Virus record (IMG/VR): IMGVR_UViG_3300031949_000008
Coordinates: 32,001 to 96,000 of that record
From: a virus
Length of the DNA stretch: 64,000 bases
Reading direction: 5' to 3' (one strand)
The translations under genes and the position numbers were made by a program. Positions 2,953 to 39,619 of this stretch are shown here, piece by piece. How positions within the stretch are numbered: the first letter of the stretch is position 1; each line of letters starts with the position of its first letter. The notes under the pieces were generated by a model. That model did no database searches, had not been told where the DNA came from, and was given only the letters and a program-made list of their open reading frames with translations.

Positions 2953-2964
2953 CTAAATCACCTC

Positions 2965-4971: not shown

Positions 4972-5261
4972 ACTTCTTCCAAAGTTCTTCCTAAATCATC
5001 CACGTAATAATGCGCGTAGACCTTCCCCATTACCAATTGAGAGTATTTAACATTATTTTTCTTCAGCCATTTTTCAGTCATATCATATAGAAACCAACCT
5101 CTAGCTGTATGAATTATAATTCTATGTCCTTGATCAAATAATTTATTTATTTTATCAATATTCTCTGTTATAGGTTGAGCAAATTCATACCTATCTGGTG
5201 ATATAGGTTTAGCTAAAATACCATCTAAATCTATAGCTAAAATCCAGGGTTTATGCGACAT
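4953..5261 (-). CDS. HAD-superfamily phosphatase (capsule-biosynthesis phosphatase-like)
   Basis: IDLDGIL, HTARG, K..A.YYVDD; probable start MSHKPW. Confidence 0.85.
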   Translation of the reverse strand: MSHKPWILAIDLDGILAKPISPDRYEFAQPITENIDKINKLFDQGHRIIIHTARGWFLYDMTEKWLKKNNVKYSQLVMGKVYAHYYVDDLGRTLEEVCQKLL

Positions 5262-6682: not shown

Positions 6683-6684
6683 AG

Positions 6685-6843
6685 TTAATCCTTAATTACT
6701 CTTAATATATCACAAGGTTTGCCACACTTACTACATTCAAAAGAACATGTACCAATAGTTTGTTTAGTTGGATCATCTCCTATAAAATCAGGAAGATCTG
6801 AAAATATCATTTTAACTTCTGCATTACAACATTTACTCTTCAT
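6685..6843 (-). CDS. 52-aa Cys-rich (zinc-ribbon-like) protein (not in ORF track)
   Basis: MKSKCCNAEV...FECSKCGKPCD; its start overlaps the upstream stop (ATGA). Confidence 0.65.
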   Translation of the reverse strand: MKSKCCNAEVKMIFSDLPDFIGDDPTKQTIGTCSFECSKCGKPCDILRVIKD

Positions 6844-7409
6844 TTCACCACTCTTAAATAAAATCCTAATTTTTCAAGTATATTATTATATAATTTATAT
6901 TGCATTTTTTGTTCTAGTGTTGCCCATGTAGCAAATCTCTTTTCAATATTTAATAAATCAAATGTTGATGTGTGTTTATAATGAGGTACACTATCATCTC
7001 TTATATCCCAATATTTATAACTATCTTCAGCAAATGTAGTTTTATGAGAATAATCTTTATGCTGGCCTTCCCATGAATAATAAGGCACACCGATATATAC
7101 AAATGCTCCATTCACACACACACGCCAAATTTCTTGCATAATATCTCCTACATTTGATAAATGTTCCAAAATATAATCAGCCCAGATATATTTTACAGTA
7201 TCAGATGGTAAAGGAATAATACCTTCTTCAAGATTACAGACAATATCTGGTTCTAAATCTGTGTCAATATCTAATCCATAAAATCCTACTATTCTCTTAT
7301 CTTTGGGGCCACACCCAAGTTCAAGTCTAATTAAATTACCAGCCTGAATATCATCTATGATCTTAGGATTAATAGGAGCATTGCTATTCAATACATATTT
7401 ATGTAACAT
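6840..7409 (-). CDS. class I SAM-dependent methyltransferase-like protein
   Basis: LELGCG, GLDID, ILEHL, EIWRV...G, D.SH motifs. Confidence 0.85.
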   Translation of the reverse strand: MLHKYVLNSNAPINPKIIDDIQAGNLIRLELGCGPKDKRIVGFYGLDIDTDLEPDIVCNLEEGIIPLPSDTVKYIWADYILEHLSNVGDIMQEIWRVCVNGAFVYIGVPYYSWEGQHKDYSHKTTFAEDSYKYWDIRDDSVPHYKHTSTFDLLNIEKRFATWATLEQKMQYKLYNNILEKLGFYLRVVK

Positions 7410-8786
7410 TTACATGCCTCTCTGAATAGGGATTTCATCTCTTTCCCTACACTTCCAAAAATCATCCATAAAATGATCCCATGTAAAATCCCATCCATGT
7501 TCTAATAAAAATTTAGCCATAAAGAAATTGACCATATCACCAACTTCCCTACTAGTCCAAATTGGCTGATATCGAAGAGTGTATTCACTCCATTCTTTAA
7601 ATGTTTGTGGCATTCTATATCCTTGATCTTTAAAATCTTCATATAGTTCACTACCAGGATATGGCCGTATAAAAAATAATTTAAATTTCATATAAGGATT
7701 AATTTTATGAGCTTCTTGTAACATTAAAATAGTATCTTTAAAATCTCCTATTTCATCAGAATCAGGAAATCCAGTCATTGTACTTAAGTCAGGAATCATA
7801 CCAAATTTAGTTATTTTTTCTACAAATTGTAATATATGGTCTTTAGTTTGATGCTTCTGTAAACGATCTAATATAACTTGGCTTCCACTTTCCGCTCCTA
7901 TAAGTATCTCTTTAATACCTGCCTTAGCTAATAATTTATATAAATCATCTGAGTAAGAAAGAGCTGCTCTTGCATGAACCAAAATAGAAATAGGTATATA
8001 ATTATACCCTCTTTTAATCCATTTTTCACAGAATTCTATAACTCGTGCTTTTTTACAAAACCATTCATCATCATCTATATTAATATGTGATAATTGTCTT
8101 TTATTCTGAAATATATAAGAAAAATCATCTATAACATTATCTATTTCCCTAAATACATATTTACGTTTTGATATAACTTTAAGACAGCAAAATGTGCAGT
8201 TTTCATAGCATCCAAAACTAGTTAAGTATCCGAAATAAGGCCCATATTTGTTTAAATCAATCATCTCAAATGGAATCTTATGAAACTTAGTAGGTAAAGA
8301 AGGACAACCTGTGTCTAAATAACCCTCTGGTTGCTTCCAGATTACTCCAGAACAAGACTTTTTATTATCGACTATATCATCTGCTAACTGAATTATATTA
8401 TGTTCAAATTGGCCTTTTACTACTATATCTACAAACGGTTCTTTAATTAATTGATCTGGAATTAATGAAGCGGCCCAACCACCCCAAACTATTGGAATAG
8501 AATTATCTATTGATTTTACATATTTAGCAAAATTACCTGCTCCTCTAAGTTGTTGCCCGATTAAACTACTAATGCCAATGAAAATAGGTTTATTCTTTAT
8601 GTAAGTATCTAATATTGCAGGATTATCTACACGAGCATCAAATAATTTAACATCATATCCTGCTTCAATTAATGGCCCTGCTAATGTTAAAATAGAAAAA
8701 GGTACACGGTGTAATCCGTCTGTTTTAATATAAGATAATTCTGGATAATATAATAATATCGTACCTTTCGACTTATTCCATCCCAT
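7410..8786 (-). CDS. cobalamin-binding radical SAM protein (class B methylase-like)
   Basis: N-terminal B12-binding domain (P.S..TLAG, IVWGG), TSFGCYENCTFC, GAESGS, GFP, PYPGS. Confidence 0.9.
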   Translation of the reverse strand: MGWNKSKGTILLYYPELSYIKTDGLHRVPFSILTLAGPLIEAGYDVKLFDARVDNPAILDTYIKNKPIFIGISSLIGQQLRGAGNFAKYVKSIDNSIPIVWGGWAASLIPDQLIKEPFVDIVVKGQFEHNIIQLADDIVDNKKSCSGVIWKQPEGYLDTGCPSLPTKFHKIPFEMIDLNKYGPYFGYLTSFGCYENCTFCCLKVISKRKYVFREIDNVIDDFSYIFQNKRQLSHINIDDDEWFCKKARVIEFCEKWIKRGYNYIPISILVHARAALSYSDDLYKLLAKAGIKEILIGAESGSQVILDRLQKHQTKDHILQFVEKITKFGMIPDLSTMTGFPDSDEIGDFKDTILMLQEAHKINPYMKFKLFFIRPYPGSELYEDFKDQGYRMPQTFKEWSEYTLRYQPIWTSREVGDMVNFFMAKFLLEHGWDFTWDHFMDDFWKCRERDEIPIQRGM

Positions 8787-9658
8787 TATTCTTTACCTAC
8801 TTTATACCTCTGGCAGAATATCCAGTTATTCTCACTTCCTGTCATATATTCATCAGACGATGTAAGATAACCAGGATCAAAATGTGAACTTAAATATAAT
8901 GATTTCTTCTCTAAATACATAGCATTATATTTAGAAGCTTTGGATATATTCTTCATATATAATACTTTAGCCAATCCTTTCTGAGGATGTTTATTTTCTT
9001 CTAATTGACATACATTCTGTTTAATAACACAATCAGACAAATAAACATTTTCTAATCCTAATTGATTTATACGGATTGGCATATCTAAATCATCACACTG
9101 TAAGTCTTCATTAAAATAACCTAATTGATCTAATACTTCACCTTTTAAAGCCCATACACATCCAACAACTCCTTGTCCTCTTGGTGATATCTGCATCCAG
9201 AAATGTGGTTCTCGTTCTTCTACTTTAACTTCCTTAAAGAACTCTCGCCTTCCATCGCTCTCCATCCAAAATGTAGGTCGTTGTGCCAATGCTGAACCAA
9301 TATCTTTATAACTTAATGCTTTTAATAACAGATGCAAAAATCCAGGAGTTTCGACTAGGCAATCATCGTCCCACTTTATATATGTCTGACCTGGTTTTCT
9401 CAATGATATTAATTGATTATGACCAAAAACGATTCCTGTATTAACCTCATTTTCTATAATAACATCAAAGTTTTTCCTATAAGTATGTATAACTTGTTTA
9501 ACTTCAGGAGTTGCATCTTGATCTAGTATAGCCCATTCAAACTCTGAACGAATAGAATGCTGTAAAATATCTAATATACATCCTAAAGTTGCTTGTTCAC
9601 GTCCTAAGACACACATTCCTATTAAAGGTTTCATTCTTTGACCGCTAATATATGACAT
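8786..9658 (-). CDS. GT-A (family 2-like) glycosyltransferase
   Basis: N.G....N, WDDD (DxD), LGYFNE, DDLD..IR; the true start may be 9634. Confidence 0.82.
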   Translation of the reverse strand: MSYISGQRMKPLIGMCVLGREQATLGCILDILQHSIRSEFEWAILDQDATPEVKQVIHTYRKNFDVIIENEVNTGIVFGHNQLISLRKPGQTYIKWDDDCLVETPGFLHLLLKALSYKDIGSALAQRPTFWMESDGRREFFKEVKVEEREPHFWMQISPRGQGVVGCVWALKGEVLDQLGYFNEDLQCDDLDMPIRINQLGLENVYLSDCVIKQNVCQLEENKHPQKGLAKVLYMKNISKASKYNAMYLEKKSLYLSSHFDPGYLTSSDEYMTGSENNWIFCQRYKVGKE

Positions 9659-10191
9659 TTAAATTTCACAAAATCTTCAGGAGACATACCTCTACTTAAT
9701 AGTTCTTTGTCATTCTTTAATTCTTCCAGTCGCTCTTCAGTAATATCTTTTACTTCTGAAAATCCAACATCTTTTAGTCGATCAATTAAGAGTTCTGGCC
9801 ACCAGAGCGAACGATGATTATCATATGGATCTTGTCCATTGCCTAAAATATTAGATATAACATATGAAAAATAATTACCACTCTTAAACATTTCTATACA
9901 TCCTTTAAAATTAGGACAAGAAATATATAATGTACCTCGTGGTACTAAAACTCTATAACAATCTTTAAATAATAACCAAAGTTCCGAATAAGTTAAATGT
10001 TCAATAAATTCTATAGTTATAATATCAGATATACTATGATCTTTATAAGGAATCCCTAGACGAAGATCACATTTAAAATCTACTGTTTGATGTTCGATAA
10101 TGTCTAAATTACGATAATTTTTATATTTATCATAGCGATGTTTTAGAGGATTTCTTCCTCCTCCTAATTCTAATTGAATGTTTGTATCCAT
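9631..10191 (-). CDS. class I SAM-dependent methyltransferase (type 11-like)
   Basis: LELGGG, NLDI, FIEHL, YRVLVPRG...CPN. Confidence 0.85.
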   Translation of the reverse strand: MDTNIQLELGGGRNPLKHRYDKYKNYRNLDIIEHQTVDFKCDLRLGIPYKDHSISDIITIEFIEHLTYSELWLLFKDCYRVLVPRGTLYISCPNFKGCIEMFKSGNYFSYVISNILGNGQDPYDNHRSLWWPELLIDRLKDVGFSEVKDITEERLEELKNDKELLSRGMSPEDFVKFKCHILAVKE

Positions 10192-10670
10192 TTTCGTTCT
10201 TCCCCATGTCTTTCTCTATGACAATTTGAACATAATACAATACATTTTTTAATCTCTTTAAATACTATTTCTTTATTTGGAATATTAAATGCTAAAGAAC
10301 TTAGCATTTCAGCAATATTATATTTCTTCTTTTTAGGATTAATATGATGAAAATCAATAGCACCTGTATATTTATGATATCCGCAATTACTACATTTATC
10401 TAATGTTAATGACCGTAACCAGGCATTCCATAAAAGTCTATTCCTAAATCTCCATCTTAATCCATTATTTTTACATTTACATGTATGTTGTTCATAATAA
10501 TTTTTTCTATTAACTTTTACTTGTTGCTTATTATCTACATAATATTTTTTATGTTTTATTGATAATCGTATTTTATTCTGTTTATACCATTCTTGTTTAT
10601 ATCTTTTTATAATTTTCTTATGAGCTGCACGATATATTTTATCATATGCGGCTTTTTCAGAGTTTGTCAT
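10170..10670 (-). CDS. HNH homing endonuclease
   Basis: CSNCG...DFHH..P..K...EI.KCIVLCSNCHRERH after a basic repeat N-terminus. Confidence 0.85.
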   Translation of the reverse strand: MTNSEKAAYDKIYRAAHKKIIKRYKQEWYKQNKIRLSIKHKKYYVDNKQQVKVNRKNYYEQHTCKCKNNGLRWRFRNRLLWNAWLRSLTLDKCSNCGYHKYTGAIDFHHINPKKKKYNIAEMLSSLAFNIPNKEIVFKEIKKCIVLCSNCHRERHGEERKWIQTFN

Positions 10671-10891
10671 TCATGTTCTCTAAATAACTGATCATTATTT
10701 TTGGTAAGAACTCTAATTAAAGAAACATAATTTATAAATTGTGTTCCTTCTGTCACATCTGCATTTGTTATTTCTTGATGGCAACCAGGACATAAAATAC
10801 TCCCTATATTATGTAACTCATCCTGCGAATAAGGGAGTTTACTCCAGCAGTAGGGTTTCTTGTGAAAGCTACTTCCTAATGACTTAGCCAT
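10667..10891 (-). CDS. small hypothetical protein
   Basis: 74 aa with CPGC; coupled to both neighbours. Confidence 0.55.
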   Translation of the reverse strand: MAKSLGSSFHKKPYCWSKLPYSQDELHNIGSILCPGCHQEITNADVTEGTQFINYVSLIRVLTKNNDQLFREHE

Positions 10892-13055
10892 TGATTACCT
10901 CCATATAATTTTTAACTATTTTATTAGCATCAAATTCTTGTATTTTTAATTGCATACCTTTACGAATACTTTGAATAAACTCAATATCGTTTAATTGTAT
11001 ATTAAATATGTAATCTAAATCATCTATTGTATTAAACCCTAGTGCCAAGTCTTCACCAAACATTTCTGATACCACACTGCATTTTTTATTATAGATGATC
11101 GGACAACCACAAGCTGCTGATTCAAGAATAGTATTAGGACATCCTTCATGTTCTGAGGTAAATAATAAAGCATCTACAGACCTATAAAGATTGACTAATT
11201 GTTTTTGTTGTTTAATTGGACCATAATATACAAGATTTTGATATTGCAAAAATTCTTGCATTGTTTTAGCAGTATCAAGTGTATAGAAATTACCTACAAA
11301 ATAAAATTCTATATTAGGATACTTTTTTACAGCATCAATTGCAAGATCTACTCTTTTATGTGGGAAGATCGACCAGTTATTTACTAGAATTTTTGTGGTT
11401 TTTCCTGGTAAAGGTATAACTGGACTTTTAGTATTGAAAATTTCAGTATCTACTCCATTATATATAATCTTATATTTCTTCTCAATATCTACATAAGATT
11501 TCCATTGCTGTCTAGCCCACTCACTCTGCCATATAATTAGATCTGCTAATTTATAATTATCTTTCATTGCTTCCAAAACACTTGTCTGAATCTCACCTGG
11601 CTGTAATCCTGTTTCATCCCCAAGATAGCTCACAAAAGGTAAACCATCTTGTCTTTGTATCCATTGTACTTTGGGATCTCGTATTTTCGCTGCTCTCATA
11701 ATTTCCGCATTTAAAAATGCTACTGAAATCACATGCTTAACAGCAGGAGAATCCTGATCTACTACTTTATATTTTTTGTCAGTTAATTTAGGAATATATT
11801 TCCTAAGTATATTACTGAAACTTCCTGGGCCGCCATCGCTAGATGATGTTAATATACCAATACTATTATCCTTTTCAATAAAAGCACCAGTAATAGCATC
11901 TCTATATAGAGAATATCTTTTACGAATATCATAATTTTCTTCTATATCTTGCCGTGCTTGTTTTCCTATTTTATCCGCTACTTCTGAATTATTCTTAAGA
12001 TATAATATCTTATCCAGGAATTCATCAGCCGTCTTTACAATATATCCTGTCTCTCCTTCTTTAATACTCTCTACATATGATAATGATGGAGATGAGATAA
12101 TAGGAATACTAGCAGCACCTGCCATTGTATATTTTACTGCGCTCTTAGAATTTAGCCATGTATCTTGCCAAGCTGGAGGAACTATATTTACAAGATCCTC
12201 TTTACTGGCAGGATGTAATATTAAATCTACAGATTTACATAATCTATAATATGTCTCAATAGGTATCCAATCTATATATGTTTTGTGTAAGTTTCTGAAT
12301 GCATTAATTAATGTACGCATTTGAGCAACACCAGCAGAATTAATAATCCATTCTACGTCATCAAATTCTTCCCATCTTTCGTTAGCCTTTTGACACATAT
12401 CATGTGTTAATAAAGCGCCAACCCGACCACCACTTGTAATCAATACTTTATATATAGGAATAGATTCTATATAATCTAGTTTAGGTACGAAATCAAATAC
12501 TGGAAGATTTACATGTGTTGGAACATGTATAATAGGAACTGAAAAATTAGATAAACTTTTAAAGAAATTCTTTAATTCGGTAGTTGCCACAAGAACTGCA
12601 TCACATTGACTGGCCAGTTGAATAGGTGCATTTTGATTAGTAGCTACAAGAAAATCATCAAGATAGTATACAACCCGCACACCTAATCGTTTTAAATGTT
12701 GAATAATTCTTACAGCATTTCCCATACCAAGTTCTTGATGAAATCCTGGATTTGTACCTAATCTAAATAATACCACCCATCGTGGAACATAACGAATAAT
12801 ATCTTGCATCCCTTTTCCTAATGTAAATATAATCTGATATCCTTCCTTCTCAAAATAAGGTACATATTCTTTAATAACTTTATCTACACAACAGTCAGAA
12901 GCTGGCCCGACAAATGAAATTGCCTTATCTGATATTTTGATATCAGTAGATGCCATAACTTGTGGAGGAGCATTCATTGGTATCATTTTAGGTTTTATAA
13001 TTTGTTGATTTCTTGCCCAATATGGAATATTGCCTTTTTTATTATGTTCACCCAT
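10884..13055 (-). CDS. tandem two-domain GT-B (family 4-like) glycosyltransferase
   Basis: First module KS..KY..AG...IP...GETG; second module GGPGSF, IYNGVD, EGCPNTILESAACGCP. Confidence 0.88.
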   Translation of the reverse strand: MGEHNKKGNIPYWARNQQIIKPKMIPMNAPPQVMASTDIKISDKAISFVGPASDCCVDKVIKEYVPYFEKEGYQIIFTLGKGMQDIIRYVPRWVVLFRLGTNPGFHQELGMGNAVRIIQHLKRLGVRVVYYLDDFLVATNQNAPIQLASQCDAVLVATTELKNFFKSLSNFSVPIIHVPTHVNLPVFDFVPKLDYIESIPIYKVLITSGGRVGALLTHDMCQKANERWEEFDDVEWIINSAGVAQMRTLINAFRNLHKTYIDWIPIETYYRLCKSVDLILHPASKEDLVNIVPPAWQDTWLNSKSAVKYTMAGAASIPIISSPSLSYVESIKEGETGYIVKTADEFLDKILYLKNNSEVADKIGKQARQDIEENYDIRKRYSLYRDAITGAFIEKDNSIGILTSSSDGGPGSFSNILRKYIPKLTDKKYKVVDQDSPAVKHVISVAFLNAEIMRAAKIRDPKVQWIQRQDGLPFVSYLGDETGLQPGEIQTSVLEAMKDNYKLADLIIWQSEWARQQWKSYVDIEKKYKIIYNGVDTEIFNTKSPVIPLPGKTTKILVNNWSIFPHKRVDLAIDAVKKYPNIEFYFVGNFYTLDTAKTMQEFLQYQNLVYYGPIKQQKQLVNLYRSVDALLFTSEHEGCPNTILESAACGCPIIYNKKCSVVSEMFGEDLALGFNTIDDLDYIFNIQLNDIEFIQSIRKGMQLKIQEFDANKIVKNYMEVING

Positions 13056-13446
13056 ATGTTCTCCTTAAATATTCTTGTGCATTTTGCAATAATATAGGAT
13101 TATCTAATAAATATAAACTTGTGTTGCATTGTATACATAATAATCCTCTCACTTTATTTGTTTTATGATCATGATCTATATGGGGTTTATTTTGTGTTAA
13201 ATCTTTATTACAAATAGCACATTTATAATTTTGTTCATGTAATAATATATCATAATATTCTTCAGTTATATTATATAATTTTTTTAGATCATACTGTCTC
13301 TTTCGTATTTTTATATATGGTAAATTATTATATTTTTTCCTACGCTGGCTATTCATTTGCTTACCTTGTTTTGAATGATTATATTTATCGTTACTTTTCT
13401 TATGTGCCGCGCGTTTTTCGTCAATAGTAAAATATTTTTTCTTCAT
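13048..13446 (-). CDS. endonuclease VII-like homing endonuclease
   Basis: Q..KCAIC...HIDHDH...VRGLLC..CN. Confidence 0.88.
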   Translation of the reverse strand: MKKKYFTIDEKRAAHKKSNDKYNHSKQGKQMNSQRRKKYNNLPYIKIRKRQYDLKKLYNITEEYYDILLHEQNYKCAICNKDLTQNKPHIDHDHKTNKVRGLLCIQCNTSLYLLDNPILLQNAQEYLRRTYG

Positions 13447-14591
13447 ACATCGTTGATTCCTTTAATTATTTTAAGATTTTGTATTCTTTCTGCTTCTTTG
13501 AAATTCCATATTGTATTTTCATATCCTGGAACTTTAAGATCTGTATCTTTAAACTTATTAAAAGCATCATAAAATATAGCAGCGTGTTCAGCTATATTTA
13601 GATTAATATCCTGATTTTGCAGTACCCAATAATATGCTCTACGTGCTTGTGCTTCTCTCTCTTCTTGATGTTCAATCAGGAATGATAATGCTTTTACCCA
13701 ATTTTCCGTACTATTCTTCTCTGGTAAAATTGCTACTTCTTCTTTATCTAATCCTAAATAAGGTAAAATAGGAGATAAAATACAAGGAATACCAAGAATA
13801 GCATATTCAGAAAATTTCCTATGTGTTTTTCCCCAATTAAATGGATTATCTTGCAATGGAGCTATTCCAATATCAAAATCAAGTGATGCAAGAGCTGGAT
13901 AAAAGGCATCTACTGGTACGAAATCAAAGTATTCCCATTTATTTTTAGGAAGTTTTGCTACAGAAGGAGGCAACCATCCCATCATAATCCATCTAACTTG
14001 TGAATATTTTTGAGTAATTGCTGAAATTACATCTTTTATAATTTCAGCATCTGATGAATGATGAACTGTTAAATGCCAACCAATTCTAATTGTATCTTCC
14101 TGCCCTTTATCTCGACCAGGAGCTACAAACTCATTATAATGTGGTTCAACTAAATTGCGTTCAACATAAACATTAGGATTAAATTTTAATGCTAATTTCT
14201 TCAAATATGGTGTTGATGTAGTCAAAAAATCTACTTCACGAAGAATTTGTTCATATCTTGCTAAGGTTTCGCCTTGATATATCTGTTTAGCAGGATTACC
14301 ATCTGGTAATTTCCATACATTATCGTCAATATTGCTTCCGACTATTATTCCTTTTTGTTTCAATGCTCTTGTAAGCATCAACGATTCTGGCAAATATTGC
14401 CGTTGCCACATTACGATATCTGCTTCTGAGGAAGCTATTGCTTTTTCTAAAGTATATTCAATTCTTCCTTTAAGTAAATTATACTTATGAAAATATTGTA
14501 AAGGCAACCATTGCACGTGGAAAGAGGGCCCGCTTTGGTCACTGGCCAAAAATAGCACTTTTAGTTGTCGATTTATATCATTCACAATCAC
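13443..14591 (-). CDS. GT-B glycosyltransferase
   Basis: NIDD, STPYL, IGW...HSSD, DIGIAPL.DN.FN.GK..K..EY...GIP. Confidence 0.88.
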   Translation of the reverse strand: MIVNDINRQLKVLFLASDQSGPSFHVQWLPLQYFHKYNLLKGRIEYTLEKAIASSEADIVMWQRQYLPESLMLTRALKQKGIIVGSNIDDNVWKLPDGNPAKQIYQGETLARYEQILREVDFLTTSTPYLKKLALKFNPNVYVERNLVEPHYNEFVAPGRDKGQEDTIRIGWHLTVHHSSDAEIIKDVISAITQKYSQVRWIMMGWLPPSVAKLPKNKWEYFDFVPVDAFYPALASLDFDIGIAPLQDNPFNWGKTHRKFSEYAILGIPCILSPILPYLGLDKEEVAILPEKNSTENWVKALSFLIEHQEEREAQARRAYYWVLQNQDINLNIAEHAAIFYDAFNKFKDTDLKVPGYENTIWNFKEAERIQNLKIIKGINDV

Positions 14592-31451: not shown

Positions 31452-33473
31452 TTAAAATAAGTCTACTGGCAATCGATGCATTGCAAAATATGTAAATGCA
31501 GTATTACCAAATATATAATCGTTTTCTAATGTTTTAGTATATGCTATTTTTATTGTATCACCTGGAACAAGAAATAATATAGAAAATGTATTTACTGTTT
31601 GGTATGGAGATGTTACAGCTTCATGTATGGGTCTATAAGTAGATTGATATAATATATTATTTTTATATACATGTAACCCCATAACAGGACGAGACGGAAA
31701 CCATTGTAATGATAAATAACATTGACTTATATCAGCAGAACATCCAGCAGAGGCTAGAGTTGCACTATAGCCGAATCCTTGTATACCAGATACTGAAGCA
31801 GCAGTCCAAGCTAAGCCAGTAGATGGATCAAGAGTCCAACGTTCATTATAATCTACGAAAGATGATGTCAACATAGTAGAAGTACCAAGATAATTAATAT
31901 CACCTTTTCGTAATACAGTAGCTGGTATTGTTTCAGCTTCTAAATAACATGTAGTATCACAGGTACAACCTGCTGATCCATATGTGGTATTATAACAAGT
32001 AACACAATCATATACATAACATGTAGCATTACAAGAACAAGCTGCATATCCATAACAGACATTATAACAAGTACAAGATCCTTTAATATATACATAACAT
32101 GTATTATTACAACTACAAGAGCTATCTCCATAACAGGCATTATTACAACTACAACTATATCCATAACATGCATTATTACATGTACAGTTTTCACCATAAC
32201 ATGTATTATTACATATACAACCACGCCTTCGACTTCTAAAATTTACAGTAACTACAAAAGGGCTAACTTCTGTATATAGTGTTCCTAATCCCCCTGAAAA
32301 AATATCTGTTGCACCGCATGTTTGTGTAGTATTAAAATCTGCATCATTTGCAGTTGGATAATCATCAATAGCTAAAAGATTACTTGCAGCACCAGAAACT
32401 GTCCATGTAACAATAGGAGCACCGGTCTGTAATTCTATTCTCCTAACCCCCATGTAGGTAGCATTTCCCCAATTGTCTGCAAACTTGAAGGCATAATAAC
32501 GATAGGAGGTTGTATTTGTGACTTCAATATATTTAGGATCAGAAGCATCAGCAACAGCATGCTGGTCAAAGGTAGATTGTGCTGTCGTTAGCTGTACCCA
32601 TGTACCATCATTCGCATAAACTAAATCAGCAAAATCACCAGAGGCAGTTGATCCCCAAAAAGTAAAATTTTCAACTCCACGATCTGTCTGTGTTCCGACG
32701 TGGTGGAAATTTTCATAATAAATTCGTTTTATAATTTTTTCTGAACCAAGGTCTATATGAAATCTTTGATTAGTCACAACCCCACTTTGAGACATCCAAG
32801 AATTATTTTCATAAGTTCCAGTCAAAGATTTTGCCGGATCTGTGGCAAAATAAGGCCAAGAATCTGTAGCATATTTAGTTGTGGCCTTAACATAGGTATC
32901 ATTATGAGCGGGTGGATATTGAGATCCTTGTCCTGGAGGTATTCCTGTAGCTGATGTCACACTACTTGTAAGTTGTGTTCCAGATGCTACCATTGTAAGT
33001 TGTCCTATAAGTAAATAATATCCAGATGCTAATGCTGTAAATATACCACTTGTATGATCATATTCATTTAAAGTATCATAATCCTCTGTATCAAAAACTA
33101 AAGTATTAGCAGATGCTCCTGCAGTTACTATCACAGTATTTGTACAGGCTGCTTTAAATCTAGACCAATAATTCTGACTCAATCGTAGCCAATTACTACC
33201 ACTATATTTAACTAATACACCTAATGTAGTATCAAATGCCAATGCTCCAGACATTGGACTAGTTAATGCAGCAATTTGAGTTGTTGTTCCCTCATATATT
33301 GCGCCAACAGAGCCAATCCTATGTTCACCAGATAACCCAACACTACCAGATGCTGGACTATAATGTTCTATATTATATGCATCTTCGATAGCAGAAAAAT
33401 TCTGTTGTAGGATATTGGGAATTTGTTTAATTTCATTTTCACTATTAGGGTATACCTTTTTCCATTGTCCCAT
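31452..33473 (-). CDS. tail-fibre-like protein: split C1q-like domain with inserted F5/8C-like domain and CxCxxxCY repeat array
   Basis: N-terminus is paralogous to the two upstream genes; FDTE.YD...EYD...G.FTA..SGYY; discoidin-like IDLG..K.I...YRYY..F...ELQ; Cys array. Confidence 0.75.
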   Translation of the reverse strand: MGQWKKVYPNSENEIKQIPNILQQNFSAIEDAYNIEHYSPASGSVGLSGEHRIGSVGAIYEGTTTQIAALTSPMSGALAFDTTLGVLVKYSGSNWLRLSQNYWSRFKAACTNTVIVTAGASANTLVFDTEDYDTLNEYDHTSGIFTALASGYYLLIGQLTMVASGTQLTSSVTSATGIPPGQGSQYPPAHNDTYVKATTKYATDSWPYFATDPAKSLTGTYENNSWMSQSGVVTNQRFHIDLGSEKIIKRIYYENFHHVGTQTDRGVENFTFWGSTASGDFADLVYANDGTWVQLTTAQSTFDQHAVADASDPKYIEVTNTTSYRYYAFKFADNWGNATYMGVRRIELQTGAPIVTWTVSGAASNLLAIDDYPTANDADFNTTQTCGATDIFSGGLGTLYTEVSPFVVTVNFRSRRRGCICNNTCYGENCTCNNACYGYSCSCNNACYGDSSCSCNNTCYVYIKGSCTCYNVCYGYAACSCNATCYVYDCVTCYNTTYGSAGCTCDTTCYLEAETIPATVLRKGDINYLGTSTMLTSSFVDYNERWTLDPSTGLAWTAASVSGIQGFGYSATLASAGCSADISQCYLSLQWFPSRPVMGLHVYKNNILYQSTYRPIHEAVTSPYQTVNTFSILFLVPGDTIKIAYTKTLENDYIFGNTAFTYFAMHRLPVDLF
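31944..32219 (-). repeat. eight tandem Cys-rich peptide repeats (CxCxxxCY)
   Basis: CICNNTCY, CTCNNACY, CSCNNACY, CSCNNTCY, CTCYNVCY, CSCNATCY, CVTCYNTTY, CTCDTTCY; 23 Cys in 92 aa. Confidence 0.97.
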
Positions 33474-33481
33474 AATAATTC

Positions 33482-34198
33482 CTAGCAGATTCTATAAATA
33501 TTAAGGAAGTTACGGTCTGAACCTCCTACTAATACAATACTTGTTGTACGTGAATGTGTTACTTTTACCTTTATTTTATCTCCAGCTATTAATGATAAAA
33601 TAGTTGTAATTCCCTGATACAATTCATCAGATGATAATGTGTAACAATATGTCACAGGAGATGTTTGTAATATATCACTAGAATTATATTGCTCAATTAA
33701 CATATTAATTGCAATAGCACCAATAGCAGTAAAACTTGCCTGTGCACGAATAAAATAGAATCCAGCAGCTTTAGCTATAAATGTATAGGTTGTATTATTA
33801 TATTCATCCAAATTATCTATAGATTCTGTATCAAATGGAATAAGTCCAGTTGTTCCAGCAGTAATAAGATAATCTGTACTACGATATGCTATTACTTCAC
33901 TATGATTCAATAAATTTATCTGTTGCCAAGTAGCTCCAGTAAATACATTAGATACTCCTAATACTGTATCTTGTGCCATCGCTCCTGTTGAAGGATCTGT
34001 AATAGCCGTGATACCAGATGTTGTAGTAGATGTTATAACAGGTAAAATACCAGGTTTATGTCGCCCAGATAATACAACAGTTAATCCATTATGCTCTAAT
34101 GCACTCATATCTTCAATAGCTGTCCAATTACCTACATAGATACTAGAAATATCTACAATAAATGAACCTGTGGTAGGTACTGTTTTACTCCATGCCAT
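33482..34198 (-). CDS. short tail-fibre-like protein with C1q-like domain (paralogue 2)
   Basis: MAW...NW.AIE...EH...SG.H..G; IPFDTE...F.A..AG.Y; L.AGDKI. Confidence 0.72.
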   Translation of the reverse strand: MAWSKTVPTTGSFIVDISSIYVGNWTAIEDMSALEHNGLTVVLSGRHKPGILPVITSTTTSGITAITDPSTGAMAQDTVLGVSNVFTGATWQQINLLNHSEVIAYRSTDYLITAGTTGLIPFDTESIDNLDEYNNTTYTFIAKAAGFYFIRAQASFTAIGAIAINMLIEQYNSSDILQTSPVTYCYTLSSDELYQGITTILSLIAGDKIKVKVTHSRTTSIVLVGGSDRNFLNIYRIC

Positions 34199-34205
34199 AA
34201 TAATC

Positions 34206-34919
34206 CTAAGATAATCTTATAATATGTAAACTTGCATTTACAAGTGTAATAGAAGATGTATGTTCCTGATAACCATATAGTTCAATTTCATCACCTGTTA
34301 CCAATGATAAAATATCTGCTACATCTACATTTCGCATGGCTGCACCATAAAGCACTGATTTACTCCATAGTATACTATTTAAACCTATTGCAATACCTTT
34401 TTGATAATTTAGTACTGTTTCATGAGGAAAACGAATACTAGCTTTAATAAAATAAATACCAGTATTAAGTACAGTAAAACGTCTTGTAGTAGAATTAAAT
34501 TCTGACAAGGTATCATAATATACTCCACTAGTAGCACCTGCTGATGTTAACTTTGTCCATGCACTAGTAGGAATTGTCTGTTCATTAAAAACTACTCGTA
34601 ATCTAGAATATTTATTAGCTGTAAGTTGTCCCCATCCAGTTGATCGATAAATTAAAGTTTGTCCATTGGTAGTATCGTAACCAATAGCTCCAGTTCCTGG
34701 TGATGTTGCTGTTGTAATAGTAGTATTAGTATCTACAAGAAGTATTCCAGATTTACCTGCAATATGTTGTCCACTGCCGCCGCTGGTAAAAGTTTGATGA
34801 TCAATATCCCACCAATCCTCAATAGCTTTCCAATTATTTCTAATTTGAGAATTAGGATCATCTGCAACTGATCCACTCACTGATGTTGAACCTAGCGGAA
34901 AATTAGCATTCCAAGTCAT
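34206..34919 (-). CDS. short tail-fibre-like protein with C1q-like domain (paralogue 1)
   Basis: MTW...NW.AIE...DH...SGQH..G; YDT..EF....RFTV..TGIY; L.TGDEIEL. Confidence 0.72.
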   Translation of the reverse strand: MTWNANFPLGSTSVSGSVADDPNSQIRNNWKAIEDWWDIDHQTFTSGGSGQHIAGKSGILLVDTNTTITTATSPGTGAIGYDTTNGQTLIYRSTGWGQLTANKYSRLRVVFNEQTIPTSAWTKLTSAGATSGVYYDTLSEFNSTTRRFTVLNTGIYFIKASIRFPHETVLNYQKGIAIGLNSILWSKSVLYGAAMRNVDVADILSLVTGDEIELYGYQEHTSSITLVNASLHIIRLS

Positions 34920-34922
34920 ATA

Positions 34923-35273
34923 TTAGTTCTCTAGATAATGTTTTATATTCTCTATTTTGTCTATATAAGGTTCAAAATGACCAAGCATTAAATTACATGC
35001 ACGATGTAAAAGTCCTCGTATTTTATTAGTATCATGGTCATGGTCTACAACAGCTGAAGAAAAGTCAAGAGGTTGTTCACAAATAGGGCATATCCCATTT
35101 TGAGATTTCCATATATTCATATACTCATCTTGTGTTAGACCATAGGAATATAATATTTTACGCCATTTGTTATAATCTTTATTTGCAACATACCATTTAC
35201 GAGAATTTTTGGTAATTTTATCTTTATGTTCTTTATAATATTGTTTTGCTTCTATTTTAGTTTTGAAGGGCAT
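34923..35273 (-). CDS. endonuclease VII-like homing endonuclease
   Basis: YGLT...QNGICPIC...VDHDH...IRGLLH..CN. Confidence 0.88.
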   Translation of the reverse strand: MPFKTKIEAKQYYKEHKDKITKNSRKWYVANKDYNKWRKILYSYGLTQDEYMNIWKSQNGICPICEQPLDFSSAVVDHDHDTNKIRGLLHRACNLMLGHFEPYIDKIENIKHYLEN

Positions 35274-36262
35274 TATTTATTTTCCCACCGTGTATTTAAT
35301 TTCATAAGTAAAGGAAATAATTTCTTAAATTCTTCACAAAAAGGACTCTTATGTCCATACTCACCAAAGGTGAGCTTTTGAACATAAGGGCATCCAGCCT
35401 GACAAAGAGTTACCCATTCACAGTCATGACATTCTGGTATATTCTTAGCACTCCATCTTTGAGGACATTTTAAATCACTCCAATGTATATGAGTATCTAT
35501 ATGTCCAATTACTGTATCTTTGTCAGGATTACAACTTCTTAATGTTCCATCAGGATCTATAATCACTAACCACCGACCACAGGAATACGGATTTTTCACA
35601 CTTTTCCAAGATGGGTATGTAGATTCCACAATCCAGTTAGGCCAGATTGGTCGTGGAGAGGCCAATAAAATTTCTAAAACTTCCTTCATTTGCTTTCCAT
35701 ATTCTTTTACATATTCAGAATCTTTTCCACCATCATATAATCTATTAATTCTCATTTGACAATGATGCTTAACTGCCAATTGAGCTAAATTAGTAATCCT
35801 TGGCATGTTAACTTTATTCAATACTATTGAAAGAGTACAACCACCACATATGGCTTTAATCTGGCAAATTTTATCTTCTATTCGTGCCAAACTGTCATAT
35901 GTGGGATTCAGTGCTATTTTTATTCTTCGCACTTTAAATACTTTTAAAATATCCTTTGTTAAAAGATCACCATTTGTATGAAATATATGACCATCAGGAG
36001 GTAGAGGTGTCACCCACCCTATGTTCGATTCCATCTGGTCTACTAGATATAATACAGTATCTACAACATTTAATGGTTCTCCACCAAGAAATGACACCCT
36101 GAGATGTTCAACTTTCTCTTCAATACAAATATTTTTAAGCCAATTAATTGCTTTATCTGCTATTTCTATAGACATATTTTCATTGACTGATGGATTGTAG
36201 CAACCATCACATCCCCTATGACATATATTTGTAGGAAAAAAGAATACCATTAAATTATGCAT
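35273..36262 (-). CDS. radical SAM/SPASM-domain protein 2
   Basis: CHRGCDGC, GGEPL, TNG.LL; SPASM Cys pattern CG...DG...C...CHDC.....CQAGC...C. Confidence 0.92.
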   Translation of the reverse strand: MHNLMVFFFPTNICHRGCDGCYNPSVNENMSIEIADKAINWLKNICIEEKVEHLRVSFLGGEPLNVVDTVLYLVDQMESNIGWVTPLPPDGHIFHTNGDLLTKDILKVFKVRRIKIALNPTYDSLARIEDKICQIKAICGGCTLSIVLNKVNMPRITNLAQLAVKHHCQMRINRLYDGGKDSEYVKEYGKQMKEVLEILLASPRPIWPNWIVESTYPSWKSVKNPYSCGRWLVIIDPDGTLRSCNPDKDTVIGHIDTHIHWSDLKCPQRWSAKNIPECHDCEWVTLCQAGCPYVQKLTFGEYGHKSPFCEEFKKLFPLLMKLNTRWENK

Positions 36263-36971
36263 TCTGTAACTTCTTTACCTGTTTTGCTGCATTATCCATT
36301 TCTTTTATCCAACGTTTAATTGTTTCTAAACTTCTATTAGGAACTGCACTCATATATGTTACTAAATCCATACTATTATAGATCTCACCATTAAATTCAA
36401 GTATAGCAAAATGATTATCATTATATTTAAAAGGATGGTTTATACTAATATATTTCTGAACATCTGGTGTATCACTTATATATCTTTTACCAATACACGG
36501 CATCTTATTCATATCGATAATATCATAGAAAAATAAAGATGCACTTGATTTAATAGGAACATAAGCATATAAATACTTTGCAATTCCAGATTTAAACATT
36601 AAATGAAGAAAATCTGACATTAAATAACGCACGTATTTTGTTTGTCGATATTCAGGATATACTAATTTAATATTCTCAAAATCATATTTACCATACCCAT
36701 CAGGATTGTCTAATATTTCCTGAGATAAAATACATCCAATACATATATCGTCTTTATACGCATAAATACAATATTTACGATCAATCTGACTTCCTTTATT
36801 AATATTTATAGAAGTAGTATGAGTTAAATATGTTGGATTATATTTAAAGAACTTTCTTGTGATCTCACGTTCTTCAAGAGAAATATCGTTTACATCTTTA
36901 TATAATATGTTAGGAAATATAATAATACCTTCTGAAGGTAGTAATCTATCCCAATTTTGCAAAAAATACAT
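36255..36971 (-). CDS. GNAT-fold-like protein
   Basis: YAYKDDICIG and VYPEYRQTK..R.L resemble GNAT motif A. Confidence 0.5.
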   Translation of the reverse strand: MYFLQNWDRLLPSEGIIIFPNILYKDVNDISLEEREITRKFFKYNPTYLTHTTSININKGSQIDRKYCIYAYKDDICIGCILSQEILDNPDGYGKYDFENIKLVYPEYRQTKYVRYLMSDFLHLMFKSGIAKYLYAYVPIKSSASLFFYDIIDMNKMPCIGKRYISDTPDVQKYISINHPFKYNDNHFAILEFNGEIYNSMDLVTYMSAVPNRSLETIKRWIKEMDNAAKQVKKLQNA

Positions 36972-37602
36972 GTCGTTTGTAGCCCTCTAGATCAGTAATT
37001 TCATCTGCTATAGGTGTCATATCGTCTATATAACTAACTGGTAGAATTCTATATAATTCAGATTTCTTCAATTCTTTAAAACAAAATTCCATAAATGTAT
37101 TTGTACATTCTTGTACTATTGCTTTATCTTTAGAAGCAATAGCTCGTTCCCAATGTGATTTATCTTTATAATTAAATAATACCTCTCGCGATATAGGTTC
37201 CCAATTATATATTACATACCACGAATCTGCAGAATCATATACAACATCATCTACTAAATAAGCCATTAAATATTCATTAGTTATATGACTATCATTAAAG
37301 AATGATTTCATATATCTTGTAGCTGCACCAACACTCATTATCTCAACTTTATCTTTTTTATAATGAATAATAGGTGCATCTCTATTAATTGTTAATTCAC
37401 CTTTAATATAACGACTAATCATATCTTCTGGTGAATAAGTTGCTAATTTTAAATTAGTATATTTATTAACTAATTCAGTCCAAGGAGCAATAGCTATAAA
37501 AAATAAATTATCTCCTTCAGCTTCTGGAATAGGGTACTTAATATTCTGACGTAAGCGTAGGGCATTTGCAAATGGGTAAATTCTAGGCATCAGTCGCCTC
37601 AT
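36946..37602 (-). CDS. hypothetical protein in the radical SAM cassette
   Basis: 218 aa, coupled to both neighbours; no motif recognised. Confidence 0.6.
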   Translation of the reverse strand: MRRLMPRIYPFANALRLRQNIKYPIPEAEGDNLFFIAIAPWTELVNKYTNLKLATYSPEDMISRYIKGELTINRDAPIIHYKKDKVEIMSVGAATRYMKSFFNDSHITNEYLMAYLVDDVVYDSADSWYVIYNWEPISREVLFNYKDKSHWERAIASKDKAIVQECTNTFMEFCFKELKKSELYRILPVSYIDDMTPIADEITDLEGYKRHVFFAKLG

Positions 37603-38396
37603 TATTTCTCATAGTCTATCTCCTCAATTACTATGATGCCTTCATCTGTTGGAAATGTAAACTGTGCAACCTCTAAACGACCTGGAACTAGACCACCTTC
37701 AAATACCAAAATATCTTTAATTTTACATGTATTTAATACATATGCATCATTTAATTCCTGTACAAGTTTGTCATTTTTACCTATTTTATATCTATCTTTA
37801 GCGCCATCAAGCATATATCTTATTCTATTTATAAAATTATTATACATAGATGGTATTTTATTAAAAGAACTTTGTTCTCTAATTTTTGTTATTGAACTTT
37901 TAATAACTTTAGGAAAGATTTCTATATCAACACTATTTCCTAATTTACTCACAGATTTTTGAAAAAATGATGCAATATCTGGTCCTTTGATAATAATATC
38001 ATTTCTACTAACAGTTGAATGTTGAAAAGCCATTGCACCCATTACTATAGCAGTAGCTCTTTGAATATAATCATCAGTCAATAAAAAATCTTTATATAAT
38101 GATACAAATGCAGCAGCTTTTTGAGCCATTGGTGCTCTCCAACTTTCGTCTATTTTAAATGCATTTTGATCTTCAACTATAAATCCTTTATCTATAATAT
38201 CTTGTACCATTTTTTGTGATTTCTTTTCAGGAGCAAAACCCAAACCTAGTGTTAAATGGTTTAACCAATCACGAGGTCGTCCTACAACTTTTACTACATA
38301 TGTTCCAGGAAATGTTTTAGCAAAATCTAATAATGCCTGATGTCCAGCATGTAGACCTTCAGAATGATTTGCTATCGGGACTATTACTCTACCCAT
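37602..38396 (-). CDS. divergent PanC-like (HxGH nucleotidyltransferase-fold) ligase
   Basis: GLHAGHQAL (HIGH motif), KGPD and IREQSS at positions matching PanC GEKD and LALSSRN. Confidence 0.6.
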   Translation of the reverse strand: MGRVIVPIANHSEGLHAGHQALLDFAKTFPGTYVVKVVGRPRDWLNHLTLGLGFAPEKKSQKMVQDIIDKGFIVEDQNAFKIDESWRAPMAQKAAAFVSLYKDFLLTDDYIQRATAIVMGAMAFQHSTVSRNDIIIKGPDIASFFQKSVSKLGNSVDIEIFPKVIKSSITKIREQSSFNKIPSMYNNFINRIRYMLDGAKDRYKIGKNDKLVQELNDAYVLNTCKIKDILVFEGGLVPGRLEVAQFTFPTDEGIIVIEEIDYEK

Positions 38397-38398
38397 AT

Positions 38399-39619
38399 TT
38401 AACCCCTTCGCTCCAGTGCAGAAACACGATTATTCAAATCTGATATTAATAATGCTATCGTTTCCAAAGAAATCGTGGGAGGATTGTCTATTACTGGACC
38501 TGTATAATGTTCAAAATTGCAAATACAGTTTTTATCTTGTGATATAGCCTTATCACCTATTTTTTCTTTATAATACATTGATATCTTTTTTTGTACTTCG
38601 ACATATTTACATAATCCTATATGAGGAATTTTTATATCACCAGTAAAGTCAAAGTTGACCGCATAACATCCCGAATTGCAAGGAGTATCTTTAAGCCTTG
38701 CACATCCATTACATTGATTATGAGAAAAATCTATAAATGACTGTCTAAATTCTGATCTAGTAATTCCATGATCAATATGACCAATACAAATTTCTTTATC
38801 TTGCCATGCTCGTTTATCGTCAAATTTGAAAAATCGGTGACAGGGCGCTATGGCTCCATCAATATCTATTCCAACATAATTACGTCCTCCACCACATGGA
38901 TATTTGCTATTATCAGCTGCCTGATATGATTTAAAATGTTCTATTTCAATAATATGACCATTATCACGATAAGTTTTTAATAGATCTACTATCTTATATC
39001 CTTGTTCTTCAAAGATTTTCCACTTTTCATCTGTCCATTTTGTCTCATAAACTGGAGAAAAGATTATAGAATTAAAACCAAAATCGATTAAGTACTTAAC
39101 ATCATTATATAAGTTATGAATGCTATCAGCCGTGAGGCCTAGTCTTGGTCTATAGAATGGCCATCTCTCTAATACTTTTTCCATATTTTTCATAATGGTA
39201 GCATGAGAACCCTGACCATCTTTAAATCTTCTATAGAAATCATGTGTTTCTTGTGTACCATCTAAACTGACTAAGAAAAATATCTTATGTTCATCTAAAA
39301 AATCAAATTTCTCTTCAGTCAATAATGTACCATTAGTCGTACCACCAAAAGTAACAGGCACCACAACCTGTACACTTTTCTCCTTTGCGTAAAGAACAAT
39401 CTTTTGTAATAATGACCACTCTAGTAATGGTTCGCCTCCCCAAAAACTAATTTCAACAGGATTAACTTTATCAGCATTTTTGAAAAGAAAATCTACAGCT
39501 TTATAAGCAATTTCTTCTGACATACGGCCAACTCTACATCCATATGTAAAACAGTATGAACATGCTAAGTTACAGTTTCTAGTTAAATTTAATGATGCAC
39601 GTGTTATTGGATAGTTCAT
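38399..39619 (-). CDS. radical SAM/SPASM peptide-maturase-like protein 1
   Basis: CNLACSYC, FWGGEPLL, TTNGTLL, SLDG...HD..R; SPASM CGGG...G...PCHRF...C..C......C..GC.A.N...C. Confidence 0.94.
   Translation of the reverse strand: MNYPITRASLNLTRNCNLACSYCFTYGCRVGRMSEEIAYKAVDFLFKNADKVNPVEISFWGGEPLLEWSLLQKIVLYAKEKSVQVVVPVTFGGTTNGTLLTEEKFDFLDEHKIFFLVSLDGTQETHDFYRRFKDGQGSHATIMKNMEKVLERWPFYRPRLGLTADSIHNLYNDVKYLIDFGFNSIIFSPVYETKWTDEKWKIFEEQGYKIVDLLKTYRDNGHIIEIEHFKSYQAADNSKYPCGGGRNYVGIDIDGAIAPCHRFFKFDDKRAWQDKEICIGHIDHGITRSEFRQSFIDFSHNQCNGCARLKDTPCNSGCYAVNFDFTGDIKIPHIGLCKYVEVQKKISMYYKEKIGDKAISQDKNCICNFEHYTGPVIDNPPTISLETIALLISDLNNRVSALERRG

Follow-up and report, generated by a model that had tools for sequence, protein, structure and literature searches.

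A cysteine-repeat array in a split C1q-like phage tail fibre and its companion radical-SAM/SPASM enzyme: a candidate for thioether stapling of a fibre tip

Radical S-adenosylmethionine (radical-SAM) enzymes with a SPASM domain are known to install thioethers on Cys-rich repeats. In the closest precedent, CrpA/CrpC from Methanococcus voltae (September 2026), the SPASM enzyme CrpC modifies in this way the Cys-rich protein CrpA, which carries 10 repeats (PMC13692751). PapB, which acts on PapA (freyrasin), uses acidic acceptors only, Asp and Glu, placed C-terminal to the Cys (PMC12373016). In quinohemoprotein amine dehydrogenase the pair QhpC/QhpD gives Cys-to-Asp/Glu thioethers (PMC7876137), and NxxcB links Cys by a beta-thioether to the Asn of an N-x-x-C motif (PMC9389541). 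Here we describe a Cys-repeat array of a phage tail fibre, encoded at positions 31944-32219 on the minus strand of a 64,000-nucleotide stretch of viral DNA (positions 32,001 to 96,000 of IMG/VR record IMGVR_UViG_3300031949_000008; the window in the following), and its association with a radical-SAM/SPASM enzyme, rSAM1, encoded at 38399-39619. On balance we favour the explanation that rSAM1 makes thioether staples in the array, probably from Cys to Asn/Asp, so that the receptor-binding tip would bear a rigid finger that is redox-proof. New are the repeat family, its setting in a virion and its embedding without a leader.

A comparison with CrpA/CrpC shows the same combination of a SPASM radical-SAM enzyme, ranthionine-type thioethers (proposed in our case) and a protein-sized tandem Cys-rich substrate. 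The repeat region of CrpA is likewise predicted by AlphaFold with low confidence. However, CrpC belongs to TIGR04463 and contains a RiPP recognition element (RRE; RiPP, peptide made by the ribosome and modified after translation), while rSAM1 reaches only 66 bits with TIGR04463 and lacks an RRE. The N-terminus of CrpA is leader-like and its repeat has 17 residues with C-x-x-Q/D, whereas the phage array consists of C-x-C-[N/D]-x-x-C-Y units in a loop of a folded virion protein. The PapA/PapB system (NF047865) is the best-matching family of rSAM1, and its substrate carries repeated Cys-acceptor motifs joined by S to C-beta crosslinks. It needs a leader and an RRE, whereas the phage system has neither, with mostly Asn at the candidate acceptor position and three Cys per unit. 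In QhpC/QhpD, radical-SAM/SPASM thioethers replace disulfides as structural staples of a cytoplasm-made subunit, but QhpC is a single small, non-virion subunit with three bridges, a cleaved 28-residue leader and no tandem repeat. The streptococcal RaS-RiPP pair NxxcA/NxxcB has the N-x-x-C motif, and [N/D]-x-x-C is present in every canonical unit of the array; NxxcA, in contrast, is a small quorum-regulated peptide, and no family of the NxxcB type is found among the best 25 of the 75 NCBIfam matches of rSAM1. The CXXX-repeat system (TIGR04114/TIGR04115) resembles ours in that rSAM1 matches TIGR04115 with 149 bits. Its Cys recurs every fourth residue, however, and rSAM1 is nearer to PapB than to TIGR04115. 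The array itself is not recognized by the CXXX-repeat target models (TIGR04114/TIGR04117 and the Pfam CXXX-repeat target).

The array covers residues 419-510 of the 673-residue product of the open reading frame (ORF) 31452-33473. A preliminary description of the window, made from the sequence alone, had given exactly these limits and 23 Cys in 92 residues (25%); 14 Tyr and 12 Asn are also present. Where it counted eight CxCxxxCY repeats, seven units do follow C-x-C-x3-C-Y, with N, D or Y after the second Cys (C-x-C-[N/D/Y]-x-x-C-Y), and the eighth is a degenerate unit with two Cys, C-V-T-C-Y-N-T-T-Y. The terminal Tyr is indeed found in all eight units, the linkers measure 3-6 residues and RSRRRG stands immediately ahead of the array, as described. 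Within the array the Cys are spaced by 2, 4 and then 4-7 residues. Across all six frames of the 110-kb genome, the pattern C.C...C[YHFW] is confined to this ORF, where it is found seven times, and the genome has no other genuine Cys array. The statement that codons differ between the repeats is not borne out: Cys is encoded by TGT in 23 of 23 cases, Tyr by TAT in 14 of 14 and Asn by AAT in 11 of 12, and the 8-codon unit cores are 82% identical as DNA versus 70% as protein. Tandem Repeats Finder reports a 33-nt period with 81% matches. Conservation of the peptide pattern rather than of the DNA is nevertheless right and is demonstrated by relatives, which mix TGT with TGC and TAT with TAC at other GC contents and keep the same pattern. 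The conclusion about disulfides that the preliminary description had drawn from the odd number of Cys is arithmetically true but not diagnostic: relatives show 36 odd and 19 even counts (array boundaries being rough), so the parity is not conserved. RSRRRG was considered as a processing or recognition site and dropped: only R413 is invariant in the fibre family. The motif is absent from the arrays in other host proteins and thus does not belong to the module.

No family match of the array was obtained with Pfam, NCBIfam and PHROG models, even at E <= 10 for Pfam and NCBIfam, and six array sequences run against Pfam and NCBIfam at E <= 10 gave nothing but one noise match. The best matches of a PDB sequence search had E > 3, and a search of the ESM Atlas returned no usable match. 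Metallothionein, EGF-like, insect antifreeze beta-helix and other such families showed no sequence match to the array in Pfam, NCBIfam and PDB, and no confident array model was available for a fold comparison.

Relatives of the array were found in metagenomes. A word-indexed search gave 12 relatives with the same fibre plan, containing 5-19 units and 15-57 Cys. When 1.84 billion cluster representatives were searched exhaustively with HMMER, no more than 79 matches were obtained; 28 of these have arrays, in widely differing proteins as long as 2213 residues. The pooled family comprises 55 metagenomic array proteins with 464-470 units and the consensus C-[TS]-C-[N/D]-x-T-C-Y-G. The positions of the pooled units are occupied as follows:

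Positions 1-3: C at 1; T (35%) or S (33%) at 2; C at 3.
Positions 4-6: N (53%), D (32%) or Y (9%) at 4; 5 variable; T (55%) at 6.
Positions 7-9: C (82%) at 7; Y (88%) at 8; G (52%) at 9.

N or D at position 4 is found in 85% of 470 units versus 12% N+D outside the arrays, and is the strongest non-Cys signal of the unit besides Tyr. Family linkers are mostly of 3-4 residues, giving a period of 11-12. The repeat number, whose comparison across relatives had been suggested in the preliminary description, ranges from 3 to 28 copies in the 55 proteins. Tail proteins of at least five unrelated contexts contain the array as an insertion. Where PHROGs or neighbouring genes are informative, the host is a C1q fibre, a J-like central fibre, a baseplate-like protein or a host-range protein; other hosts are proteins ending in YPWT and small free-standing proteins in which the repeat comes first, with no leader ahead of it. 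Judged from these sequences, the array is a real, rare and portable repeat module of phage tail proteins. Searches of a phage collection with the fibre DNA and protein gave no match. A pattern scan of genome contigs from 185,579 species genomes found no relative either, although with few patterns this is weak evidence of absence; metagenome contigs scanned with a single pattern from outside the array contributed little.

Further features were noted among the relatives. In variant arrays the terminal Tyr is replaced by Asn/Asp, giving C-x-C-[N/D]-x-x-C-N-[GS]-D (loci L028:4614-6554 and 6583-8925, L009:7627-8481, L031:207-1067, L023:496-894, L017:6619-6951 and L025:708-1448). The tails of free-standing and C-terminal array proteins are short, conserved and aromatic, reading either ...Y-[RE]-Y-P-W-[TS] or else ...K-Y-A-P-x-x-W-[LM]-F, and could be docking or follower motifs.

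The array co-occurs with rSAM1, and the tie to radical-SAM genes that the preliminary description had implied is thereby supported. In the forward direction, viral contigs were found with fibre and array patterns. Three syntenic relatives show the gene order rSAM1, HxGH protein, GNAT-like protein, rSAM2 (a second radical-SAM/SPASM enzyme), two plain fibres and array fibre, with arrays of 22, 7 and 14 units. Four array proteins from this search stand in other contexts. Every array-bearing record of the forward search encodes an rSAM1-type enzyme. Neither rSAM1 nor rSAM2 was found within 10 kb of the array-less fibre relatives L007, L012/L099 and L100, and two records of such relatives, G001 and G004, lack radical-SAM genes altogether.

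In the reverse direction, a scan with the rSAM1 alignment gave 79 loci, 18 with close (at least 32% identity) and 61 with distant radical-SAM enzymes. For 16 of the 18 close viral loci an array is present in the locus or record. It lies within 10 kb in 13 of the 18 by a looser criterion and in 10 by the strict Y-type motif; the three further loci have it as a 246-residue protein beside the enzyme (L025) or 22-24 kb off (G002 and G003). Both close loci without an array are fragments, 14% and 27% complete. This repeat type occurs in none of the 61 distant loci. The pairing is seen with the C1q fibre, the J-like central fibre, the baseplate-like protein, the small leaderless proteins and the YPWT-ending proteins. 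rSAM1 alone tracks the array in every context; outside the C1q-fibre and J-like lineages the array is not joined by rSAM2, the HxGH protein or the GNAT-like protein. In other phages the array protein is the only conserved neighbour of the enzyme. The preliminary description had allowed for a well-known disulfide or metal-binding domain unlinked to radical-SAM genes; what is found is a module with no family match and a tight link to one radical-SAM clade.

In the window, rSAM1 belongs to a five-gene cassette (35273-39619), which is located 3-6 kb upstream of the array fibre, past one endonuclease VII gene:

38399-39619, minus strand: rSAM1, radical-SAM/SPASM enzyme, assigned by its NF047865 score (261 bits), CteB (5WGG), the cluster cysteines and co-occurrence.
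37602-38396, minus strand: HxGH nucleotidyltransferase-like protein, assigned by profile matches and an invariant HxGH.
36946-37602, minus strand: cassette protein without an assigned family.
36255-36971, minus strand: GNAT-like protein.
35273-36262, minus strand: rSAM2, second radical-SAM/SPASM enzyme.

Both enzymes have the CX3CX2C motif and the C-terminal SPASM cysteines of radical-SAM/SPASM maturases. The best NCBIfam match of rSAM1 is the PapB ranthipeptide maturase NF047865, with 261.3 bits over profile positions 5-329 of 330. The families that follow, with the best 25 of 75 matches considered, are nif11-like maturase, QhpD (TIGR03906, 164 bits), SCIFF, CcpM and CXXX-repeat maturases. 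Its invariant cysteines are C16, C20, C23, C242, C260, C278, C303, C314, C318 and C337. PF04055 is matched with 57.7 bits (cut-off 29.5), and Pfam SPASM is below threshold (18 vs 21.5). Among solved structures, the family profile of rSAM1 best matches the thioether synthase CteB (5WGG, E 7e-53). As this alignment starts at CteB residue 98, the N-terminal RRE for reading a leader is absent; the alignment to TIGR03974 likewise starts at profile position 100, and the protein begins at the radical-SAM motif. The classical RiPP arrangement, a leader read by the RRE of the maturase, is thus not found, the array being internal to the fibre protein. In a phage collection, rSAM1 matched only uncultured gut-phage contigs, with an identity of at most 31.5%. 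In five of eight rSAM1-type homologues (alignment A2), the C-terminal tail shows a perfect C-[IV]-C-x-N-M-C-Y unit, together with a C-x-C-Y-N-A-N-Y-T-G-P element and a short heptad-like helix. The tail of the present rSAM1 (38399-38527) has a reduced copy only, N-C-I-C-N-F-E-H-Y.

rSAM2 is more divergent than rSAM1. It has invariant C14, C18 and C21 and C278-x2-C-x5-C-x3-C291, reaches 36.5 bits with TIGR04085 (cut-off 27) and gives weak matches to the DynA, YhhB, XyeB and AmcB families. The protein encoded at 37602-38396 looks like an enzyme of nucleotidyltransferase fold. Labelled PanC-like in the preliminary description, it gives a weak match to phosphopantetheine adenylyltransferase (E 8.5e-4) and a poorer one to pantothenate synthetase (E 0.3). 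The endonuclease VII-type gene (PF02945, E 9e-19) at 34923-35273 lies exactly between the cassette and the three fibre genes. It has no counterpart at that place in the syntenic relatives L004, L005 and L006 and looks like a mobile insertion. In L006 (1840-5546), two rSAM1-type and two rSAM2-type genes stand in tandem ahead of the fibre genes, and a 111-residue array protein with 19 Cys is found further upstream in this relative (L017:6619-6951).

A second repeat type was met at six loci that had been fetched via distant radical-SAM homologues (23-28% identity to rSAM1). There, C-T-C-N-C-N-Y heptads end fibre-like proteins (L042:11905-12780; L044:13742-14482, equal to L045:10185-10925; L046:5584-6870; L077:12648-13361; L080:13238-13834). 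These proteins are encoded 0.3-4 kb from the distant radical-SAM gene, and that of L042 has 59 Cys in 292 residues. In three of the six loci the heptads continue straight into a YSDxRLK-type motif, which we take to be the start of an intramolecular-chaperone fibre end. The C-x-C-N core common to heptads and array units hints, at the level of sequence, at a wider family of radical-SAM-paired fibre repeats.

Modelling indicates that ORF 31452-33473 is a phage tail fibre with a split C1q-like head, which bears a sandwich domain carrying the array. From the N-terminus of the fibre, its parts are followed here together with the neighbouring paralogues:

33482-34198 and 34206-34919, minus strand: two uninterrupted C1q/BclA_C-like fibre paralogues upstream of the array fibre, with the same adaptor.
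33177-33473, minus strand: N-terminal adaptor, common to both paralogous short fibres.
32952-33176, minus strand: N-terminal half of the C1q/TNF-like head, residues ~100-174 (Pfam C1q at 116-163, paralogue hhalign, structural match with Z 18.1).
32433-32864, minus strand: discoidin/galactose-binding-like accessory domain, first insert of the split head, residues ~204-347.
32220-32411, minus strand: N-terminal half of the CBM-like beta-sandwich, residues ~355-418, with an AlphaFold2 (AF2) predicted local distance difference test score (pLDDT) of 85-90.
31944-32219, minus strand: Cys-repeat array, residues 419-510.
31743-31943, minus strand: C-terminal half of the CBM-like beta-sandwich, residues 511-577, return strand from ~515, AF2 pLDDT 75-97.
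31455-31742, minus strand: C-terminal half of the C1q/TNF-like head, residues ~578-673 (structural match and weak hhalign to the C-half of the paralogues).

The AF2 model of the whole fibre (mean pLDDT 50) superimposes on 4oul_A with Z 18.1 and a root-mean-square deviation of 2.4 over 131 of 132 residues. The aligned range of the model is 103-672, so the C1q jelly roll is built from residues ~100-174 plus ~578-673, and a complete C1q/TNF jelly roll is thus recovered. Phage receptor-binding heads match the model with Z 13-15. The paralogue profile aligns to fibre residues 1-167 and weakly to 599-648 (hhalign). With Pfam C1q the array fibre scores just under the cut-off of 23.7 (22.4) and a paralogue just over it (23.9). 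The same jelly-roll fold is present in C1q/TNF-like and BclA-type trimeric phage heads such as the cyanophage A-1(L) short fibre (8ke9), TM4 gp23 (9n6a) and PRD1 P5. Those heads are uninterrupted, whereas the head of the array fibre is split by ~400 residues that comprise two further domains and the array.

The first of these domains gives sub-threshold Pfam matches to F5_F8_type_C (17.4 vs 28.2) and DUF5000 (22.0 vs 25), and also to Sad1_UNC. It has more than 100 homologues with PF00754 or PF16391, and PF22633 is also among the homologue families; its AF2 prediction has low confidence with a shallow alignment. Among the fibre relatives this discoidin-like domain is found in the present phage only, the other 12 family members being without it, whereas the beta-sandwich is common to all of them. 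The last strand of the N-terminal sandwich half, ...VTVNFRSRRRG, runs into the array, and this half is conserved in the family alignment A1; the C-terminal half by itself recurs in many other proteins. In a separate AF2 model of residues 350-600 (36-row alignment), the sandwich has a pLDDT of 85-97 and the array one of 33-42; the array stays below 50 in both models. It is placed between a long strand (403-417) and the return strand (515-523), that is, at the tip of a hairpin. The fold matches of the sandwich reach at best Z 8.0 (9qrm_B, CBM36, CBM32), which is within the range common to beta-sandwiches, and its BFVD matches are uncharacterised phage proteins. The proposal of the preliminary description that the array sits in a sandwich loop inside a split C1q-like domain is confirmed by the AF2 models and the C1q match. 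The C1q split site is a hot spot for inserts, discoidin-like here and an unrelated ~170 residues in P0006 and P0007 (alignment A1, columns ~190-400 and 440-600), and P0020 in the same alignment has a second insert of ~160 residues within the sandwich.

From these observations the following mechanism is proposed. The array would form the hairpin tip of the distal sandwich domain in a trimeric, C1q-type short fibre. During synthesis of the fibre in the host cytoplasm, rSAM1, which has no RRE, would act directly on the embedded repeats and convert Cys thiols into ranthionine-type thioether bridges, from sulfur to a side-chain carbon. In almost every unit the second Cys is followed by Asn/Asp, and this residue is the likeliest acceptor. 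Because there is neither an RRE nor a leader, recognition would be of the unit itself, perhaps aided by the enzyme's own unit-like tail. Additional modifications may come from rSAM2 and the other genes of the cassette. The outcome would be a solenoid-like stack of stapled turns of 11-12 residues, projecting from the sandwich as a rigid finger. Such a finger would resist proteases and redox change and would expose a Tyr/Asn/Thr-rich surface at the receptor-binding end of the fibre, where it may serve in adsorption. Disulfides would be unable to give this rigidity in the reducing cytoplasm or in anoxic soil. The low pLDDT of the array beside a confident sandwich is expected if its folding needs crosslinks. 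The broader statement, which might equally well hold or fail, is that a leader-independent SPASM enzyme recognises a portable C-x-C-N/D-x-x-C-Y unit in folded tail proteins and makes it a rod stapled by thioethers; the covalent modification of virions would thereby gain a new class, belonging to a wider, so far undescribed family of CxCN-type repeats with radical-SAM partners in fibres, including the C-T-C-N-C-N-Y heptads.

Several points weigh against stapling by rSAM1, the case for which is built on gene context and homology. With three Cys for a single N/D, most cysteines have no obvious acceptor. Asn prevails at the presumed acceptor site, though PapB needs a carboxylate. The conservation of Asn, Thr and Tyr might just as well reflect the ladders and stacks of a solenoid. 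For such enzymes, a folded substrate of 673 residues whose array is buried between strands on either side is unusual. rSAM1 scores below the PapB equivalog cut-off (261 vs 340 bits) and is thus a relative, not an equivalog. In G002 and G003 the enzyme (56% and 34% identity) is encoded 22-24 kb from the arrays. The source soil metagenome is not evidently anoxic. Finally, the Fisher test of an earlier strict-motif tally (14 of 18 vs 0 of 61) gives p = 2e-12, a value that overstates the association as the loci are not phylogenetically independent. Since the loci are related, the persistence of the pairing across at least five unrelated host proteins is the better argument.

Among the alternatives, it is rather unlikely that the array is an enzyme substrate with another chemistry, such as bridges to the alpha-carbon (sactionine) or to the gamma-carbon of Thr, Tyr links, or inter-chain links in the trimer. 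The single N/D beside three Cys in each unit would suit this idea, as would the fact that Thr (55% at position 6) and Tyr (88% at position 8) are conserved too. Thr is used by CteB-type enzymes (PMC9389541). The cassette holds two SPASM enzymes, of which rSAM2 weakly resembles cyclophane- and dynobactin-type enzymes (DynA, YhhB, XyeB, AmcB), and the C1q head is a trimer fold. However, the top matches of rSAM1 are all Cys-thioether maturases, it is rSAM1 and not rSAM2 that accompanies the array in every context, and N/D at position 4 is, apart from Tyr, the strongest non-Cys signal.

An unmodified array is unlikely. It would be a mini-solenoid that is knotted by disulfides or binds metal (Zn, Cu, Fe or Fe-S), and the radical-SAM genes would serve another role in the tail. 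A Cys content of 25% and the CxC motifs are in line with this, N, T and Y could be structural ladders, and the soil habitat permits oxidation after lysis. In addition, the first and third Cys are six residues apart in a period of 11-12. Beetle antifreeze protein has disulfide-braced coils of 12 residues with the same spacing. But the tracking of one radical-SAM clade through at least five unrelated hosts, the absence of the module where the enzyme is absent and the copy of the unit on the enzymes would all be left unexplained. Virions are assembled in the reducing cytoplasm, and the array has no sequence match to metallothionein, antifreeze or another Cys-rich family or to a PDB chain.

It is very improbable that the cassette matures a free peptide, for instance the product of a small MPLEILENK ORF, with the fibre array as a mere neighbour. 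The classical substrates of PapB, SCIFF and QhpD enzymes are small leader-bearing peptides, and the genome has 11 small ORFs with a common N-terminus, some with 5-6 Cys. These eleven MPLEILENK-like ORFs lie on the plus strand at 2589-14123, 31744-31932 and 102564-105359 of the genome; they look like early genes sharing a start region, not peptide precursors. Their strand is opposite to that of the cassette, they are in early regions, and their bodies are unrelated, non-repetitive and free of array-type units. Moreover, rSAM1 has no RRE to read a leader, and its only conserved neighbour in other phages is the array protein. The idea of a chance or low-complexity feature, or of a DNA tandem repeat with no meaning at the protein level, can practically be dismissed in spite of the 33-nt period and the AT-rich genome, for the unit is confined to one frame and one ORF, its peptide is conserved in 55 proteins despite mixed codon use and differing GC contents, and the same gene is present in a second, independent soil study.

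The virus record measures 110 kb, is 98% complete with ~33% GC and was assembled from a soil metagenome; fragments identical to the gene are found in the second soil study. Reads of two runs on the gene showed no variants in repeat number; a contig of one run may be the source of the DNA, and the other covers the gene in pieces. The source soil sample also contains a short contig that is ~87% identical to the 3' end of the array (31885-32001), which suggests that a relative with a similar array co-occurs there.

Virus particles are known to be stabilized covalently by isopeptide bonds, as in the HK97 capsid, and by disulfides. A full-text literature search gave no paper in which a phage structural or virion protein is crosslinked by a radical-SAM enzyme; one cyanophage paper names a radical-SAM 'maturase' as an antibiotic gene. 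With the array module as a marker, Cys-rich ORFs of phage metagenomes that lack an explanation can be re-annotated. If stapling by rSAM1 is true, SPASM maturases would work with neither a leader nor an RRE on a short motif grafted into folded proteins, and the unit would be a genetically portable stapling tag of interest to protein engineering. It would explain how a fibre can have disulfide-like rigidity despite its assembly in the reducing cytoplasm. Ranthionine thioether chemistry, so far a matter of small antibiotics and one archaeal protein, would then also reach the receptor-binding tips of phages, and phages would harden their host-recognition gear by RiPP-type radical chemistry.

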